Both the position numbers and the translations under genes were made by a program. The notes beneath the pieces are model-generated. The model was not told where the DNA came from. It ran no database searches and worked only from the letters and a program-made list of their open reading frames with translations. Shown here piece by piece: positions 9,650-55,899 of a stretch of DNA of 58,972 nucleotides. Positions within the stretch are counted from its first letter, which is position 1. Each line of letters starts with the position of its first letter. This stretch comes from Reclinomonas americana ATCC 50394 (Eukaryota). The stretch covers positions 171,443 to 230,414 of the forward strand of contig PS015093.1 of the NCBI GenBank assembly GCA_048213135.1, written 5' to 3'.

Positions 9650-12600
9650 TCACTCATACAAGACGTCAGTGAAATCAGAAGAGAATGACCCAAAGATTCG
9701 AGTCAACACGGCGCCTTGTCGGCGAGAGAAAGTCGACTCTCTCGAAGGTTGAATGGAGACATCGGTCAACGCAGCAGGGGTGCTAGAGTTACGTTGCACA
9801 TCTTCTCGACTTGCCATCGACCATTGCCGCACAGTCTTGTCCCGACTGCCACTCACAATGTTCTGGCCATCGGGTGTCACTGCTACTGCCCACACCCAGC
9901 CCGTGTGGCCTTCCAGTCTCTGCACCTCCTCGCCGCTCGCAAGTGACCACATCCGTACAGTCTTGTCCAAACTGCCACTCACAATGTGCTGGCCATCAGG
10001 TGTCACCGCCACTGCCATCACCACACTCGTATGGCCTTCCAGTCGCCGCACCTCCTCGCCACTTGCCACCGACCACATCCGGACAGTCATATCCGCACTG
10101 CCACTCACAATGTGCTGGCCACCGGGTGTCACGGCCACTGCAGACACCCAAAGCGCATGGCCCTCCAGTCGGCGCACCTCCTCGCCACTTGCCACCGACC
10201 ACACTCGTACAGTCTTGTCAAAACTGCCGCTAACAATGTACTGGACATCGGGTGTCACTGCCACTGCAGACACCCAAAGCGCATGGCCCTCCAGTCGGCG
10301 CACCTCCTCGCCACTTGTCACAGACCACACCCGTACAGTCATGTCCCAGCTGCTGCTCACAATGTACTGGCCATCGGGTGTCACTGCCACTGCCAACACC
10401 TCATCCGTGTGGCCTTCCAGTCGGCGCACCTCCTCGCCACTGGCCAGCGACCACACCCGTACAGTCATGTCCCTACTGCCACTCACAATGTGCTGGTCAT
10501 CGGGTGTCGCTGCTACTGCAGTCACCTCTTTCGTGTGGCCTTCCAGTCGGCGCACCTCCTCACCATTTGCCACCGACCACACCCGAACAGTCTCGTCCTC
10601 ACTGCCACTCACAACGAGCTGGCCATCGGGTGTCACTGCCACTGCACACACGTAACTCGTGTGGCCTTCCAGTAGATGCACCTCCTTGCCACTTTCCACC
10701 GGCCACACCCGTACGGTCTTTTCCTCACCGCCAATCACAATGTACTTGCCATCGGGAGTGACGGCAACAGAGGTCACACGAGTAGTGTGACCCTCTAACC
10801 GTCGCACCTCCTCGCCACCTGCCACCGACCACACCCGTACAGTCCTGTCCTTACTACCACTCAGAATGTGCTGGCCATCGGGTGTCACTGCCACTGCCCA
10901 CACCTCACCCGTGTGGCCTTCCAGTAGGCGCACCTCCTCGCCACTAGCCAGTGACCAAACCCGTGCAGTATTGTCATCACTGCCGCTCACAATGTGCTGA
11001 CCATCGGGTGTCACTGCCACTGCACCCACCCCATCCGTGTGGCCTTCCAGTCGGCGCACCTCCTCGCCACTTGCCACAGACCACATCCGTACAGTCATGT
11101 CATCACTGCCACTCACAATGTGCTGCCCATCGGGTGTCACTGCCACTGCAATCACCCAACCCGTGTGACCCTCAAGTCGGCGCACCTCCTTCCCACTTAC
11201 CAGCGACCACACACGTACAGTCATGTCCCAACCGCCACTGACAATGTGCTGGCCATCGGGTGTCACTGCCACTGCAGTCACCCAAAGCGCATGGCCCTCC
11301 AGTCGGCGCACCTCCTCGCCACTTGCCACCGACCATACCCGCACAGTCTCGTCATCACTGCCACTCACAATGTGCTGGCTATCGGGTGTCACGGTCACTG
11401 CATTCACCCCACTCGAGTGGCCCTCTAGTCGTCGCACCTCCTTGCCACTTGCCACCGACCACACACGCACAGTCTTGTCCCCACTGCCACTCACAATGTG
11501 CTGGCCATCGGGTGTCACTGCCAGAGCACGCACCGAATCAGTGTGTCCTTCCAGCGGCTTCCTCGGCCACTTCACATCCTTCACATTCTCACCCCTAAAA
11601 TCCGCCCCCCTCGCATATGCCATGCACACATTCACCCCTCGCATATCCGCTCCTCTCCACACCGTCCTGTGCATCACCGCATCCCTCAAATCCGCACCTC
11701 TCACTCGCACACCCGACAGATCTCGTCCACTGAACGACACTTTTGCCACACACAACACCGTCGCTGCATTCGCCGCCGCCGTCACCACTCGCTCATCATC
11801 CACCTCTCGTGACATCTCAGTCACCTCCCACAGTCTCCCTTGTAGTGTAGGAGACCGTCGAACCACCTCGGCCATCTGCTCCACCAACGATGGTCTGTCG
11901 TTCAGCAATCGCACTCCCATCACATGCTGCTGCACATCTTGCATCGTCAATCTCCTCTCCTCATCCCACGTCTCCCACGCAAACACATGCCGTGCCACAC
12001 AGTGCTCCAGCAACGACAGATGCACAAACCCCCACTGTGTCATTCCATACCGTCGCACAATTGGACAGCACACTCGCACGTGCTGATTCTTCTGGCCGAG
12101 GAATTTGTCAAATGGTCCCTCTCCCACTCGTCGCAAGGCGAGTGGCGCACCACCAAAGTCATCCTCCTCTCCATTATCACCTGCTCGATTCTCCATCACA
12201 GACACACGCACCACATTCCTCTCGTGCATCAACCGTGCCAGTCCCTCACAGAATGCTAGACACGTCTCCTCACTCGGCACACGCTCCGCACCGAGACGCG
12301 TCTGCCTCTCCTGCTCCCTCTCGATCCACTGTCGAATGAATCGGTCAAATACATCACACCGAGTCGGTCGCTGCACACCACTCGCCACCAACTGCGGCAA
12401 CACACGAGCCACCACTGAGAGCAGGAACGGATTCGACACTAGTACATCCAGTCCATGCACACTCTTCAGTGCACGAATGTACTCATCGGCAGTCGACCAT
12501 CGCACATCTCCATCATCATCACCACCCACTTGCACGAGCCGATCAAAATACTCCTCAATCTGCTCCCTGTTGAACGGTGCAATGTGTCGCTCCATCAACT

Positions 12601-14330
12601 TATGCATGCACAACTGTCCTCGTGCATCTACAGGTGCAAAGTACCTTCGATACTGCGTCGCGCCACCCAGTGCCGTCAGCGCGTAATCGCCTCGACAAGT
12701 GATAATCACCTTCAAGTCGCGACACACATCCAGCTGGTTCTTGACAAACAGATTCACACCACGGTACAGCTCGTCATATCCGTCAAGCAACAACAGCAGT
12801 GGTTCCTCCTTCAACCGTCTCACATCCGACTCCAATCCCAACTCGGGTGACAGTCGTTCTTGTGCCTCCTCCAACAGTCGCTCATCGGCATTGCGCAGAG
12901 CACCAAGAGGCACTCGCACTGGCACTCGTCGACTCTCTTTCGACTGCCACTTTCGCCAAGCTCGCTCGGCCAGCACCGACATGGTGGTGGTCTTACCGGC
13001 TCCACTGTTGCCAAACAGCATCAGCACACGGTGGGTGGTATTAGTGTCGGAGAGGAAACTATCCACCTCCGTCAACAGATCCGTCATCTTGTCCTTCGAC
13101 GAGACGTCACGCTCATGTGAGCACAGCAGTGGCACACACATCTGCATGTCCTTGCGCACACTCTCATCTTCGTTATAATAGGCCATCTCACGCAATGCCA
13201 GTCGATGCAATCGAACCGCAAAAGTACTAAAGTCGATATCAACAAGGCGCGCCTCGCGAATCTGCGCTGCGAAACCAGTCATTGCATCGGCAGGCAGCTG
13301 CAACTTCCCGAGGAAGGAGAGGAATACACCACCGTCATCGAGATACTCTTGCACGTTGGTCTCGGTCAACGCATTCGGATCGTGCCCTAGCTTGTTGCGA
13401 ACCTCTCGCAACTGCTCCACAGCCTTCCGTTCATCAACAACATCAACCAGCAGTAGCTCGCGACCGTCATCGTGCATGAAGCCACCGAACAGCAGGATCG
13501 ACGCCAAGGCCGTCACATCGAACGCGTCACACAGAGGGTCGGATGACGGGTCGGCATCAAAAGCACTCTTCCAGTCGAGCATGTGATGCTGTTGCGGTGC
13601 AAACAACTTCACGCGACCAGGAGCGAGTGGCGCATGCCGATCGTACCACGCCCTTATCGTCAATGGATGTAAACACAACGGCGGAGTCCACACATCGGGA
13701 GTCCACGCCCGCACGTCAAAATCGAAATGATCGCGACTAAACTTCGCCAGCGCGAGTTGACAGCGCAGACGCAGAGCGTCGACCACAGCCTCCCAGGCAA
13801 CGTCGATGCGATTTGAGTGGACCATTCTACACCGCGCATTATGTCAGCAACATTAACAGCAGCGAGGAACCACGTCTGACAACAAACCGCTCCGATAATG
13901 CCGATGTGCTGATGAGTGCACTCTGCCAGTGAGCTCACACATCAACTACACAAGTGATTCACGCACGGAATCACCTTGCAACTCCGCCGACGACGGCAGC
14001 AGCAGCTGGGACTGCAGGCGACACGCTCACCCGCACAACCAGTGGGGCGCTTGCGTCGATACCCAGATCTGCCAGCTCCAATCTGCCGACCTTGGCGAGT
14101 TTATACTTTGCCGGCTTCTCCACCCCCACAATTTCCATCATCTCGTCTCCACTCTTCTCACGCAGCAAGCCAGTGGCCTCGCGCAGCAAGTCCGCGAGAG
14201 TGGACATTGCCGACATGCCCTCCACCAACACGACGAGTGCAGAATCGTGAGAGGCGACGACGCTGACAGTGAACTGTGCGTCATGGTCAGTACACAGTGG
14301 CAGCGCACAAGCACACACAACTCATACCAT
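9650..14330 (-). CDS. NLR-like STAND protein: (ubiquitin-like)-HEPN-NACHT-pentapeptide repeat-14xWD40
   Basis: The 1391-aa open exon 13825-9650 contains FDVTALASIL...LREVRNKLGH (HEPN RxxxxH, 13399-13382), Walker A GNSGAGKT, Walker B LLLLLDGYDE, KVIITCR, NPFLL, pentapeptide repeats (FSGRDLSGVRVRGADLRDAVM) and 14 WD40 repeats. Upstream exons (ATG at 14330, exon from 14273, small exon at ~13922-13891) are inferred from splice signals and are less certain. Confidence 0.9.
9800..11556 (-). repeat. 14 tandem 126-bp coding repeats (WD40, high internal conservation)
   Basis: The unit LEGHxxxVxAVAVTPDGQHIVSGSxDxTVRVWSVASGEEVRR was counted 14 times, and near-identity is visible at the DNA level. Confidence 0.95.
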
Positions 14331-52374: not shown

Positions 52375-55300
52375 ATGGCCGATGCGGAGGACGCGCATTC
52401 CCGTGCCGCCTCGAGCATCGAAGAGCTCTTCTTCGGCGAGGGCTTCCTGCTCAGCGCCGACGCGATGGGTCCGGTGATGCCCGCCGGCCCGCGACGTCGT
52501 CCCGTCCCGAAACTGAATGCGTCTGGATCGTCGTCATCGGCGTGGTCGCGTCGGCGCCGGAGAAGCAAGAGCGGCGGTCCCCTGTCCCCTCCACGGTGGA
52601 TGCCACCAGCGAAGGCAGTGGCGCAGGACGCGACGCCACCAACGCCGACGCAAACAGTGACAACAAAGAAAAAGAAGACGATTGTGCGACCAGTGGTGCG
52701 TTTGGTGTGTGCCTCTTCTGTGCGTCGAGTGCGAGTGCATTGTGGTGATGAGAACGTCGGTTGTGTAGAGAGTGAGCGGGGATGCGGAGGGTGGCGATGA
52801 TCATGTGATCCAGCTGGTGTTGATTGAGGAGGCGGAGATGGGGAGAACGGAATTGGTCATTCGAAGTCCGCAGGCGGGCGTGTTGCATGTTGTTGTTGCG
52901 TTTGTCCTGCTTGCTCTGAGGAAGAGAGCGCGCTCTTCTTATGCCTGAGCCTCGCAGCCGGTTCGGAAAATGAGACGGAGACCAGTGACACCGCCTGCTC
53001 GGGATCTTGACGCGTTGTCTGCTGCCACTGGGAATGCTGCTGGTGCTGCTGGAGGGAAGAAGCGATTGGTGTTTACGGAGTATGCGGGGCCAGGGGAAGG
53101 AGTGACGCCGGTGGAGGTGGCGACGGATGTGGGGAGGCTGGCGGAGAGGTTGTCATCGACGCGACCGCAGAGTGCAATGCCGCTGTCGGTNNNNNNNNNN
53201 NNNNNNNNNNNNNNNNNNNNNNNNNNNNNNNNNNNNNNNNNNNNNNNNNNNNNNNNNNNNNNNNNNNNNNNNNNNNNNNNNNNNNNNNNNNNNNNNNNNN
53301 NNNNNNNNNNNNNNNNNNNNNNNNNNNNNNNNNNNNNNNNNNNNNNNNNNNNNNNNNNNNNNNNNNNNNNNNNNNNNNNNNNNNNNNNNNNNNNNNNNNN
53401 NNNNNNNNNNNNNNNNNNNNNNNNNNNNNNNNNNNNNNNNNNNNNNNNNNNNNNNNNNNNNNNNNNNNNNNNNNNNNNNNNNNNNNNNNNNNNNNNNNNN
53501 NNNNNNNNNNNNNNNNNNNNNNNNNNNNNNNNNNNNNNNNNNNNNNNNNNNNNNNNNNNNNNNNNNNNNNNNNNNNNNNNNNNNNNNNNNNNNNNNNNNN
53601 NNNNNNNNNNNNNNNNNNNNNNNNNNNNNNNNNNNNNNNNNNNNNNNNNNNNNNNNNNNNNNNNNNNNNNNNNNNNNNNNNNNNNNNNNNNNNNNNNNNN
53701 NNNNNNNNNNNNNNNNNNNNNNNNNNNNNNNNNNNNNNNNNNNNNNNNNNNNNNNNNNNNNNNNNNNNNNNNNNNNNNNNNNNNNNNNNNNNNNNNNNNN
53801 NNNNNNNNNNNNNNNNNNNNNNAAGAGCGCTGACCTTGAATGCGCTCGCTCCAGTCTCCTCGACTCCTCCACACACGCTCGTGAGACCTGCAAGCAGGCT
53901 CAGCATTGTTGTTTCCCAAAAAAACATCACTCTCGTACTCACCGGCAACACAGCCGCACTCTGTGGTCTCGTCAGCCGCTGTGCCAGCGTTTGCACGGTG
54001 CCGAGTCGCTCCCGATCCGGCGACGACGACATGTCGGTGATGGTCGTCAGTGTGGTCGTCGCGGTGGTGGTGGTCGACAGGCTGCCGGGCGAGCGCTGCA
54101 GGTTGGTCGGTGATAGCTTGGAGGCGGCGGTCAACTTGTCGTGACTCGACTGAGGGGGTAAATGGGGAAGGGGGGAAGGGGGAAGGGGAAGGGTAAGGGG
54201 GGAAGGGTAAGGGGGGAGGGTAAGGGGGGAGGGTAAGGGGAAGGAAGAAGATCGAGAACATAAGTGAAGGAGGGAAGACTACAGCGACAAGAAGCAAGGG
54301 ATGACAGGCAACAAGGGGGACTGCAAGGACGAAGATGAGGGGGAAGACAGCGACAAGAAACAAGGACGGCAGGCGACAAGGAGGTAAAACGTGAGGAGTG
54401 AGAAGGCGATGGACGGAAGGAGACAAGGGAAAACAGACAAAGGGGGAAAGGCAAGGATGAAAGGAGGCGAGGGGGAGAAAGCGAGAGTGAACAAGGACGA
54501 CAAAAAAGTTGAATCGATGAGGAGACAGAAGAGAAGGAGGAGGGAAGAAGGAGAGGAGAGGAGAGCCTAATCAACCACACACTCCTCCCACATCGCACAT
54601 CGCACACCCNNNNNNNNNNNNNNNNNNNNNNNNNNNNNNNNNNNNNNNNNNNNNNNNNNNNNNNNNNNNNNNNNNNNNNNNNNNNNNNNNNNNNNNNNNN
54701 NNNNNNNNNNNNNNNNNNNNNNNNNNNNNNNNNNNNNNNNNNNNNNNNNNNNNNNNNNNNNNNNNNNNNNNNNNNNNNNNNNNNNNNNNNNNNNNNNNNN
54801 NNNNNNNNNNNNNNNNNNNNNNNNNNNNNNNNNNNNNNNNNNNNNNNNNNNNNNNNNNNNNNNNNNNNNNNNNNNNNNNNNNNNNNNNNNNNNNNNNNNN
54901 NNNNNNNNNNNNNNNNNNNNNNNNNNNNNNNNNNNNNNNNNNNNNNNNNNNNNNNNNNNNNNNNNNNNNNNNNNNNNNNNNNNNNNNNNNNNNNNNNNNN
55001 NNNNNNNNNNNNNNNNNNNNNNNNNTGCGATCAATGTTGAAGAAGGAGAAGTCGACGCCCGTGCCACTCTCCGCCGGCAACACCACGCTCATGTCGTCCA
55101 CAAAGAGGCCATGAAAACGTACCTTGACATGCACGTAAGAGGGAGAGAGAGAGAAAGAAAGAGTAGGAGAATGAGTGAGTTACCTGTCGCACTCCGAGAT
55201 CGATTCTCGTGCGCGCCATTTGCTGCTGCCAGTCCGCACGCAGCGCCAGTGCTGCATGTCCACTGCCCACACACTGCTCAAAGAAGTGCGTCCACGCAGC

Positions 55301-55899
55301 AGTCACATTGCGCGTGTCAATGGTGTATTGCAAGAGAGGAGCCTCGAGGGACGAGTTGTCATGCAGTGCCAAGGCACTGGCGTTGTGCACGAGGACGAGG
55401 AGGAGGAGCAAGACAATGGCTCTCATGCAAAAGGCAAAGCGATTCACTGTTCTCCGCGTCCAGGACCTGGCGACGCTGGACCGGCGGAGAGCGACGAGGC
55501 CACAGAGCCGGTGGCACTTAGCAAGTCCTGCAAGCGGTTCTGTCGGGCCGCTGGCAACGGTGCGAACGAGGTGTGCGCGAAGCGTTTGGCGGAGCTGAGG
55601 CGAGCGCCGAGTTGCGGCTTGCTCTGCAGTGCGCGTTCCCAGCCGGTGGCCTTTTGAATCGACGGTGTGCGTTCTCTGGAGGCGCTGCGTGGTCGTGCGT
55701 TGGTGCTGATGGAGCTGGCGCCGAGGGAGGACATGGAGGTGACGGAGGCCAGCAGGGTTTTGGCGGACTCGGCCATGACGTCGCGCTTTTTGCGGGGAGC
55801 GGCTGGGGCCGGCAGTTTTCGTGGGTACACGACCCGCCGTGTTGCTGCAAAAATTGAGGAGCAGGTCAGCGTCGGCTATTTTTTTGAGCAGGAGGGGAG
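52375..55899 (+). CDS. Hypothetical low-complexity protein; later exons lie on apparently inverted contigs (53823-54609, 55026-55899)
   Basis: MADAEDAHSRAASSIEELFFGEG... ends at a GTG|GTGCGT donor. The motif RLxxRPQSA occurs on + (RLSSTRPQSA, ~53150) and on - (RLTRPQSA, ~53960). A similar basic low-complexity frame on - ends at TGA 55444. Confidence 0.45.
55026..55426 (-). CDS. GH39 glycosidase N-terminal exons (signal peptide); contig probably inverted
   Basis: MRAIVLLLLLVLVHNASALA...HFFEQCVGSGHAALALRADWQQQM...LGVRQ|VRFHGLFVDDMSV...FSFFNIDR matches the N-terminus of GH39 beta-xylosidases. It continues naturally into 'FDFLVSIGMRPL' at 56033 on +. Confidence 0.88.

Follow-up and report, generated by a model that had tools for sequence, protein, structure and literature searches.

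What kind of receptor is encoded by the long minus-strand reading frame of this locus, and does its N-terminal head belong to the HEPN RNases? In the window, by which we mean the whole analysed stretch of 58,972 nucleotides from Reclinomonas americana ATCC 50394, the long ORF claimed in a preliminary description of this DNA was confirmed as one open frame of 1391 aa reaching from 13825 down to 9650 with no internal stop codons. Its approximately 4.2 kb are free of N letters, and the contig as a whole is gap-rich with 21 N runs. The contig looks eukaryote-like and the gene is probably intron-poor. Nine of the ten neighbouring ORFs that were tested gave no Pfam family and the remaining one showed a weak match to GH39, and a scan of the window with Rfam gave no match. 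The ORF and the parts that make up its body and C-terminus are the following:

9650..13825, minus strand, main ORF, stop codon at 9650-9652
11756..13108, minus strand, NACHT NTPase module with helical and winged-helix parts, aa ~240-690 (Pfam NACHT, shared motifs)
12989-13012, minus strand, Walker A GNSGAGKT, aa 272-279
12770-12799, minus strand, Walker B LLLLLDGYDE, aa 343-352
12689-12706, minus strand, ITCRG motif
12419-12436, minus strand, SNPFLL motif
12002-12031, minus strand, GFVHLSLLEH motif
11555..11758, minus strand, pentapeptide-repeat linker, aa ~690-757 (Pfam match at 11591-11701)
9791..11554, minus strand, array of 14 WD40 repeats, each exactly 42 aa (126 bp) long (Pfam WD40, TRF, repeat table)
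9653..9790, minus strand, C-terminal tail with no assigned domain, aa 1346-1391

The NACHT had been described as intact on the basis of GNSGAGKT and LLDGYDE, and this was borne out by a Pfam NACHT match (PF05729) to aa 266-359 that scores above the cut-off (E 8.3e-7, 29.4 bits against 26.7) and by both Walker motifs, which follow the patterns GxxGxGK[ST] and hhhhDGxDE of NACHT STAND NTPases. The Walker motifs are also shared with the homologues, and when the ORF product is aligned with eight of these, no fewer than eight of the nine sequences retain CR, SNPFLL and F-x-H-x-S. The linker is recognised by Pfam Pentapeptide (E 1.6e-6; 28 bits, cut-off 20.2) as well as by an MfpA-like match in NCBIfam (E 7.7e-6) and is conserved in homologues of the NACHT body, and Pfam WD40, too, exceeds its cut-off, matching 14 stretches with E 1.3e-169. 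The reading as an NLR-like protein of the NACHT-pentapeptide-WD40 type thus has the full support of Pfam matches, motifs and a domain order common to the homologues, and judged by its sequence the ORF product is an NLR-type STAND receptor with such a body. Of 8000 candidates that were scored, thirteen match the region aa 200-760, and the best relatives of the body are proteins from Mortierella/Linnemannia, Mycoavidus and EukProt (E 1.6e-39 to 2e-26, 27-29% identity); two relatives, P0006 and P0007, are named Arm-like repeat domain proteins. At about 28% identity the NACHT-pentapeptide-WD40 body is, on these alignments, a distant relative of the NLRs from Mortierellomycota and Mycoavidus.

The WD40 array is highly regular, with TRF reporting a period of 126 and 13.9 copies at 81% matches, and the 14 repeats share a mean identity of 74%. 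Codons 5, 6, 7, 9, 25 and 27 of the repeat are hypervariable, and four of them (7, 9, 25 and 27) flank the conserved codons 8 and 26. Between the blades of this one gene pN/pS amounts to 2.0 at the six variable codons, where pN is inflated as the codons were picked after their amino-acid variability had been seen, compared with 0.26 at the other 36 codons, which points to purifying selection on the blades. The best explanation is that the 14 near-identical blades form a double-propeller sensor with hypervariable ligand-facing codons.

The N-terminal head, which had been described as a putative HEPN RNase, contains the following features:

13226..13825, minus strand, N-terminal helical region, candidate divergent HEPN, aa 1-200 (low-confidence AF2, Pfam HEPN_Swt1, ESM neighbours)
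13490..13522, minus strand, FDVTALASILL, aa 102-112 (MAFFT alignment)
13316..13435, minus strand, segment matching positions 74-112 of the 115 positions of the Pfam HEPN_Swt1 profile, aa 131-170
13382..13399, minus strand, RNKLGH (R143, N144, H148), putative R-x4-H catalytic motif, aa 143-148

HEPN_Swt1 (PF18731) is the only Pfam family that matches the N-terminal 200 aa at E<=10, with E 0.011 for these 200 aa, 0.005 for a 120-aa cut and 0.003 for a 90-aa cut (16.4-18.3 bits). Overall the match scores 14.6-18.3 bits and covers approximately 40 of the 115 profile positions (74-113) at the Rx4H end, that is the RNKLGH helix and the next helix only, and as the score stays below the cut-off of 27.5 bits we call the head a candidate and do not file it as a HEPN member. 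FDVTALASIL and LREVRNKLGH do lie N-terminal to the NACHT as described. RNKLGH has the form of the HEPN motif, R-x4-6-H often with N following R, a string that by itself occurs no more than by chance, two copies being present in the first 271 aa. MAFFT alignments with 13 and 47 sequences place R143 and H148 in the R and H columns of Swt1-type HEPN domains, the H148 column being invariant and the R143 column conserved to at least 90%. The same method puts FDVTALASILL on the family helix LDLAALLRVL / IDYTTFGELGEII (also LDLAALL / IDYTTFGEL), but HMMs made from the first-helix block only fail to pick it out, with a score of -0.9 in one and no match in the other, and the block thus has no statistical support. 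The head scores 7.5 bits with a custom HMM of 12 bacterial Swt1 sequences (equalled by 1 of 2000 shuffles) and 4.8 bits with a 65-sequence Swt1 HMM (4 of 2000), and hhalign against Swt1 alignments gave P 0.0018 (probability 14.8%) and P 0.0076 (probability 5.2%). In the ESM Atlas aa 1-250 reached top scores of 0.95, 0.95 and 0.94 with 194-201 shared features, and clusters carrying HEPN_DZIP3 appeared at ranks 3 and 7. When aa 80-200 were compared with named clusters the best were DZIP3-like HEPN with 0.83 and 0.82, scores below 0.9 being leads only, and nine of the ten best named clusters share family or clan. The ESM 'recognition' value of the head is low with 1841 compared to 2300 for most known families.

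The searches for homologues and for a fold gave a different picture. HEPN_DZIP3 (PF18738) did not match the head at E<=10, and since none of 401 Pseudomonadota genomes contained this family a DZIP3-type alignment could not be built. No homologue of the head was present among 2976 candidates, nor did phmmer find a true one among 1.84 billion representatives; its single match (P0002) is a repetitive, unrelated protein and was rejected as spurious. A metagenome scan brought up 35 stretches that fitted the pattern, all of them unrelated, and the head had no match in PADLOC, PHROGs or NCBIfam. The search of PDB sequences with the head returned nothing relevant, and a Swt1 profile including the head retrieved from them only HepS (E 0.26) and Csm6 (E 0.75), both below a spurious RGS14 peptide. 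The helical region, said to be of about 170 aa, is indeed all-helical in AF2, but the models are of low confidence: the single-sequence model is unusable (pLDDT 36.4), and the one obtained with a Swt1-family alignment (pLDDT 61.5) is not independent evidence, as this alignment was drawn from the HEPN family. Searches with these models in Foldseek and VIA brought up no clear match, be it to HEPN or to another fold, and a homodimer prediction for aa 50-200 without an alignment gave no answer (score 0.00), the monomer fold itself being uncertain. Thus the HEPN assignment has the sole Pfam match and the ESM neighbours on its side but is sub-threshold and has no backing from a fold or from homologues. 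We regard the HEPN identity of the head, as far as sequence comparison goes, as probable and short of proof, and among the readings open for the N-terminus a HEPN effector fits best, on the strength of the partial sub-threshold Pfam match and the language-model neighbours.

Upstream of the main ORF, where the preliminary description had placed a 'Ubl' domain, lies one further candidate for coding sequence:

13975..14273, minus strand, putative upstream coding exon (open frame 13971-14318, GT..AG ends)

It would follow a putative ATG at 14328-14330 and a 54-nt intron (14274-14327) and would join the main ORF in frame across a putative 148-nt intron (13827-13974). Both putative introns have GT..AG ends and a CTGAC 12-16 nt before each AG, and the codon usage of the upstream frame is neutral. 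The 'Ubl' domain was not confirmed, as frame 13971-14318 matched no Pfam family at E<=10 and the search of PDB sequences gave NusA as best match (E 0.1), ubiquitin-like chains being absent from its results. Among public data no RNA run is listed for this DNA, which speaks neither for nor against expression; the only match listed is a contig of 776 bp (X1). It matches 13447-14207 with 1 difference and is colinear across the putative intron, which has no bearing on splicing as the kind of this contig is not stated.

Taken together, we propose a four-part NLR composed of a WD40 sensor, a pentapeptide linker, an intact NACHT switch and a helical head of approximately 180 aa, most likely a HEPN of the Swt1/DZIP3 clade that has diverged strongly and carries an intact R-N-x-x-x-H, a reading to which we give a probability of roughly 0.6. 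The sequence itself establishes the domains of the body, the motif and the way in which the repeats vary. For such a protein we infer a HEPN fold, dimerisation, RNase activity and a biological role that would be connected as follows. Binding of a ligand to the propellers would release autoinhibition, and the NACHT modules would then form oligomers with ATP. Oligomerisation would place the heads next to each other, and two HEPN domains at a time could then build a composite RNase site of the kind seen in RNase L, Ire1 or Csm6, and the cutting of cellular or invader RNA might lead to growth arrest, cell death or an allorecognition-type killing.

The same NLR body could also carry a lineage-specific helical domain unrelated to HEPN, which might be an adaptor, a membrane-targeting killer or an unknown enzyme, with RNKLGH as a chance look-alike. 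This would fit HEPN signals that are all sub-threshold and confined to about 40 aa, a first-helix block without HMM support and a head that has neither a confirmed fold nor homologues. It would also fit the very different long helical heads of related NACHT-pentapeptide-WD40 proteins, which are Arm-like or of the 'NLR_Helical' type described in a survey of fungal NLR effectors (PMC9815663), in whose main text, as far as it is available, the term 'HEPN' is absent. However, profile HMM and language-model features point independently to one HEPN clade and to nothing else, and the matched stretch coincides with the catalytic motif, in which none of R, N and H is missing; we therefore consider an unrelated head rather unlikely. 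We find it improbable that the head derives from HEPN without cleaving RNA and instead binds or senses RNA, or serves only as a dimerisation or adaptor surface. The head is very divergent, and according to the available part of PMC3710099 the HEPN of eukaryotic Swt1 may lack catalytic activity and have a role in binding or sensing; the inactive versions are, however, described there as motif-less, whereas R, N and H are intact here.

A last reading questions the gene itself, as the ORF might be an unexpressed recent acquisition, an incipient pseudogene or a mis-assembled array with the wrong number of blades. The N runs of the contig would agree with this, as would 126-bp repeats of 81% identity, which are prone to assembly error, and nearest relatives that have been linked to interkingdom transfer (PMC11291939, in the text available). 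Nevertheless the 4.2-kb frame is open and without N, the low pN/pS outside the variable codons indicates purifying selection on the blades, every NTPase motif is intact and the public contig is near-identical to the DNA it covers, so that a non-working ORF appears very improbable to us.

A further idea can be put forward tentatively, at clearly less than even odds: the head might represent an unsampled family of HEPN RNases with no detectable relatives in the representatives searched, possibly behind a ubiquitin-like cap, that was grafted onto a bacterial-type NACHT-pentapeptide-WD40 chassis in a non-animal eukaryote. Sensor-to-RNase NLRs would then have originated separately in two or more lineages of eukaryotes, with heads being swapped on mobile NLR bodies. 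In corals and bivalves few predicted immune genes are as expanded as HEPN-headed NLRs, and a compact gene with an intact NTPase, R-N-x3-H and diversifying WD40 repeats would be a convenient test of whether NACHT oligomerisation switches a HEPN RNase. With this ORF the range known for the chassis extends further than Mortierellomycota and their endosymbionts, and the chassis is seen with a different head.

Compared to known systems, the ORF product shares the order NACHT, pentapeptide, WD40 with the NLRs of Mortierellomycota and Mycoavidus cysteinexigens, for which the available text of PMC11291939 describes a NACHT-PPR-WD40 architecture and its transfer. Both are alignable over aa 200-760 (E ~1e-39) and have Walker A/B, SNPFLL, FxHxS, AAANA and the pentapeptide blocks in common. 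In contrast, the heads of these relatives (P0003-P0009) are helical or Arm-like and extend over ~530-910 aa before Walker A, whereas the head of the ORF product has 271 aa; upstream of the NACHT no similarity was found between the two, and the long Arm-like head is absent here. With the HNWD/NWD proteins of Podospora anserina (HET-E, HET-D, HET-R) it shares the NACHT and the highly conserved 42-aa WD40 repeats. Their diversification at codons 7, 9, 25 and 27 around the conserved codons 8 and 26, described in the part of PMC1805685 at hand, is the pattern found here, where it was measured between blades only. Unlike HNWD proteins the ORF product has no HET domain (no Pfam match at E<=10 in aa 1-755) and contains a pentapeptide linker.

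The closest counterparts in terms of the proposed domain order are metazoan HEPN-NACHT proteins of the DZIP3/hRUL138-like or CXorf38 type, which are predicted immune RNase-NLRs and have the same order of HEPN, NACHT and repeats and an R-N-x3-H. In the accessible portions of the respective papers a HEPN of the Swt1/DZIP3 clade N-terminal to NACHT is described with LRR, TPR or WD40 tails in cephalochordates and cnidarians (PMC3710099), and HEPN-NACHT proteins are described in 15 cnidarian species (PMC8260672) and in pearl oyster (PMC9646362). The head studied here differs by having no PF18738 match and only a PF18731 match below the cut-off, and the NACHT body is of a separate lineage, its best relatives being proteins of fungi and Mycoavidus, and is joined to a pentapeptide linker. 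That the full architecture is uncharacterised was therefore overstated, as computational work has already described the HEPN-NACHT-repeat order for cnidarians, molluscs, cephalochordates and bacteria; an experiment on HEPN-headed NLRs was not found in our literature search, which included the available text of PMC3710099, PMC9646362 and PMC8260672.

Bacterial HEPN-STAND fusions are also described in what is available of PMC3710099, as are Swt1-type HEPN-ATPases (Ava_2192 / DUF499 type) that resemble our reading of the ORF in having an N-terminal HEPN followed by a large NTPase; their ATPase is DUF499/AAA+-like instead of NACHT, and they have no WD40 sensor. We found PF18731 in 12 of 401 Pseudomonadota genomes, several times at the beginning of a frame that stays open for 1050-1223 aa. 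Among the 53 Swt1-type matches listed in a profile search for HEPN fusions five carry PF18731 together with PF04465 and none shows PF05729 (NACHT). No sequence relation was detected between the ORF and RNase L or Ire1. In these two proteins a sensor-driven dimerisation or oligomerisation switches on a HEPN RNase. Their RNase domain is of the KEN type, a different family that is counted as HEPN in the available text of PMC3710099, and it is mounted on a kinase or pseudokinase and not on a STAND NTPase, yet their working logic is the one that we propose here.

The coding sequence is one unbroken minus-strand frame from an ATG at 13825 to a stop at 9650-9652, encoding 1391 aa, and is the sole long ORF in the window with ordinary amino-acid composition. 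The motifs GNSGAGKT, LLDGYDE, FDVTALASIL and RNKLGH quoted in the preliminary description were all found at the positions given there, and Pfam placed the NACHT, pentapeptide and WD40 parts above their curated cut-offs. The features are as follows.

13490-13522, minus strand: FDVTALASILL
13382-13399, minus strand: RNKLGH
12989-13012, minus strand: GNSGAGKT
12770-12799, minus strand: LLLLLDGYDE
aa 266-359: NACHT, E 8.3e-7, 29.4 bits against a curated cut-off of 26.7
aa 709-745: pentapeptide repeats, E 1.6e-6
9791-11554, minus strand: WD40 array, 14 units of exactly 42 aa each; Pfam WD40 in 14 stretches, E 1.3e-169

To place the body of the protein we searched with aa 200-760 and obtained 13 matches from the 8000 candidates scored, led by proteins from Mortierella alpina, Mycoavidus cysteinexigens and Linnemannia (E 1.6e-39 to 2.9e-34, 27-29% identity) and followed by EukProt and metagenome proteins. 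In a nine-sequence alignment Walker A, D-x-YDE, a CR motif, SNPF-L, F-x-H-x-S-x-x-E and AA-NA are conserved; the pentapeptide block comes next, and after it the WD40 array begins. In the excerpts available, such 'NACHT-PPR-WD40' NOD-like receptors are described as common to Mortierellomycota and Mycoavidus endosymbionts, with interkingdom transfer invoked (PMC11291939), and the long helical heads of the Mortierellomycota-type proteins are termed 'NLR_Helical' (PMC9815663). Judged from its sequence, our protein is a distant member of this chassis, but its head is unrelated to theirs, with 271 aa before Walker A compared with about 530-910 aa in the relatives P0003-P0009. The body relatives P0003-P0013 occur in Mortierellaceae fungi, Mycoavidus, EukProt 'tig...' proteins and metagenomes, each with a long and different N-terminal region, a variety that would fit an exchange of heads on a mobile chassis.

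The WD40 array has a period of 126 bp in the DNA (13.9 copies, 81% matches), and its units share a mean pairwise amino-acid identity of 74%. Variation clusters at unit positions 5, 6, 7, 9, 25 and 27, while position 8 is V in 14/14 units and position 26 is D in 13/14. Between blades, pN/pS is 2.0 at these six codons versus 0.26 at the other 36, the pN of the six being biased upward because they were picked after their variability had been seen. The codon pattern published for Podospora NWD genes, with 7, 9, 25 and 27 around fixed 8 and 26, is the same (excerpt of PMC1805685). Long plus-strand ORFs within 9753-12086, for example 9753-10655 (300 aa) and 11223-12086 (287 aa), are repetitive, lie antisense to the array and look like repeat by-products, not genes.

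The N-terminal head had been described as a putative HEPN RNase. HEPN_Swt1 (PF18731) was the sole Pfam family at E<=10 on its first 200 aa (E 0.011, 16.4 bits, all 24,736 models already allowed for), with E 0.005, 0.003 and 0.04 for queries of 120, 90 and 755 aa, respectively. Every cut matched aa 131-170 to profile positions 74-112/113 of 115, which covers the R-x4-H helix and the next helix. In the ESM Atlas, where scores below 0.9 are leads only, the top matches of aa 1-250 scored 0.95, 0.95 and 0.94 (194-201 shared features) and were eukaryotic clusters, some with HEPN_DZIP3; a bacterial Swt1-HEPN cluster followed at 0.88. With aa 80-200, two DZIP3-like HEPN clusters were best among named clusters, scoring 0.83 and 0.82, with 83% PF18738 members in the second, and one family or clan was common to nine of the ten best clusters. 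Aligned by MAFFT with 12 bacterial Swt1-type domains (from 12 of 401 Pseudomonadota genomes), RNKLGH falls over RNRWAH and FDVTALASILL over LDLAALLRVL; H148 does not vary and R143 reaches at least 90% conservation, likewise in a 47-sequence alignment. With an HMM built from the 12 domains the head reached 7.5 bits, a score that 1 of 2000 shuffles equalled.

That the head is not a HEPN domain at all is an unlikely reading, yet one with evidence on its side. Every PF18731 score lies below Pfam's 27.5-bit cut-off, PF18738 gave no match to the head in any Pfam run (E<=10), a 65-sequence HMM reached only 4.8 bits (equalled by 4/2000 shuffles), and hhalign against two Swt1 alignments returned P 0.0018 (probability 14.8%) and P 0.0076 (probability 5.2%). 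The ESM recognition value is low. Homologues of the head numbered 0 among 2976 candidates and none in metagenome contigs, and 1.84 billion representatives gave a single, spurious match. The structure check proposed earlier (AlphaFold and Foldseek) recovered no HEPN fold from low-confidence models: AF2 gave pLDDT 36.4 for the head alone and 61.5 with a Swt1-family alignment, the latter hence not independent of the HEPN premise, and Foldseek returned no match at E<=0.001. Of the proposed signature, the RNKLGH segment carries the sub-threshold PF18731 match; FDVTALASILL is aligned by eye or MAFFT only, since HMMs of this block alone did not pick it up.

We nevertheless favour HEPN at about 0.65-0.7, because two different methods give the same clade and no other family, the aligned segment contains the catalytic motif and the head sits where an NLR has its effector; the negative fold and homologue searches hold the figure down. 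The head is therefore a candidate divergent HEPN and not a filed family member. A HEPN derivative without catalysis is improbable for a head that carries both R143 and H148, and a non-functional or mis-assembled gene is slightly more so for an unbroken frame with intact NTPase motifs. The NLR-like gene is real and intact, and its head is a probable HEPN RNase.

The preliminary description had placed a ubiquitin-like domain upstream, where a minus-strand frame is open at 13971-14318. An ATG at 14328-14330 is directly followed by GTATGAG, which opens a 54-nt segment that closes with CACAG at 14274; CTGAC lies 12 nt ahead of this AG.

14273-13975, minus strand: candidate upstream exon, ending in AAG before GTGATT

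The following 148 nt end in TGTAG at 13827 (CTGAC 16 nt before the AG), and base 13826 completes a codon that brings the ATG at 13825 into frame. This putative two-intron model, with splice sites picked by eye, is coherent and agrees with the upstream end proposed earlier. The strand-helix pattern of the exon presumably resembles that of ubiquitin. The domain itself found no backing: Pfam gave 0 families on the upstream frame, a PDB sequence search with the exon no ubiquitin-like chain (top match NusA, E 0.1), and codon-usage log-odds were 0.00 per codon, which did not exceed the value of one plus-strand frame, versus 0.26-0.54 across stretches of the main ORF. A search of public data listed no RNA run with this region. 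Ubl-HEPN precedents are Sacsin and a KEN protein (excerpt of PMC3710099). The single public contig spanning 13447-14207 has C at 14164 where the window has A, and a 15-base loose end past 14207.

Apart from the NLR gene, no clear gene was seen in the window. It contains 21 runs of N, 20-966 bases in length; a large part of the remaining sequence resembles (CT)n, (GA)n or (CA)n repeats, and the other long open frames mostly translate such CT/GA/CA microsatellite-like low complexity. Nine of ten other ORFs tested lacked a Pfam family, and an Rfam search of the window gave no match. The ORF 55034-55897 (minus strand, 288 aa) matches glycosyl hydrolase family 39 weakly over 45 aa (E 1.5e-4, 21.2 bits, below cut-off).

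If the protein works as characterised NLRs and HEPN RNases do, a ligand would be bound by the hypervariable top face of two propellers, upon which the NACHT module would swap nucleotide and oligomerise. Adjacent heads could then pair, two R-N-x3-H motifs forming one RNase site, and cutting of RNA might lead to arrest or death, or destroy invader RNA.

The preliminary description knew of no such architecture; for the general design this is contradicted by HEPN-NACHT fusions already published. In the excerpts available, CXorf38-family proteins of cephalochordates and cnidarians fuse an N-terminal Swt1/DZIP3-clade HEPN to NACHT, and bacterial HEPN-STAND proteins are on record (PMC3710099); anthozoans have 17-83 DZIP3-HEPN-NACHT proteins per genome (PMC8260672), the pearl oyster more than 50, with LRR, TPR or WD40 tails on oyster NACHT proteins (PMC9646362), and Crassostrea combines HEPN with WD40 propellers (PMC8195603). 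Our literature search, within such excerpts, found no eukaryotic HEPN-NLR that had been studied by experiment. New are the joining of a HEPN-like head to the NACHT-pentapeptide-WD40 chassis, although exact combinations may stand in published supplementary tables, the extreme divergence of this head, and its presence on an NLR in an apparently non-animal eukaryotic contig. In bacteria, Swt1-type HEPN domains (L002-L004, L006, L008, L009; P0055, P0062-P0065) form the N-terminal end of long open frames, given as 643-1223 aa, and their database relatives pair PF18731 with PF04465 (DUF499), a HEPN-then-ATPase layout that parallels the order proposed here.
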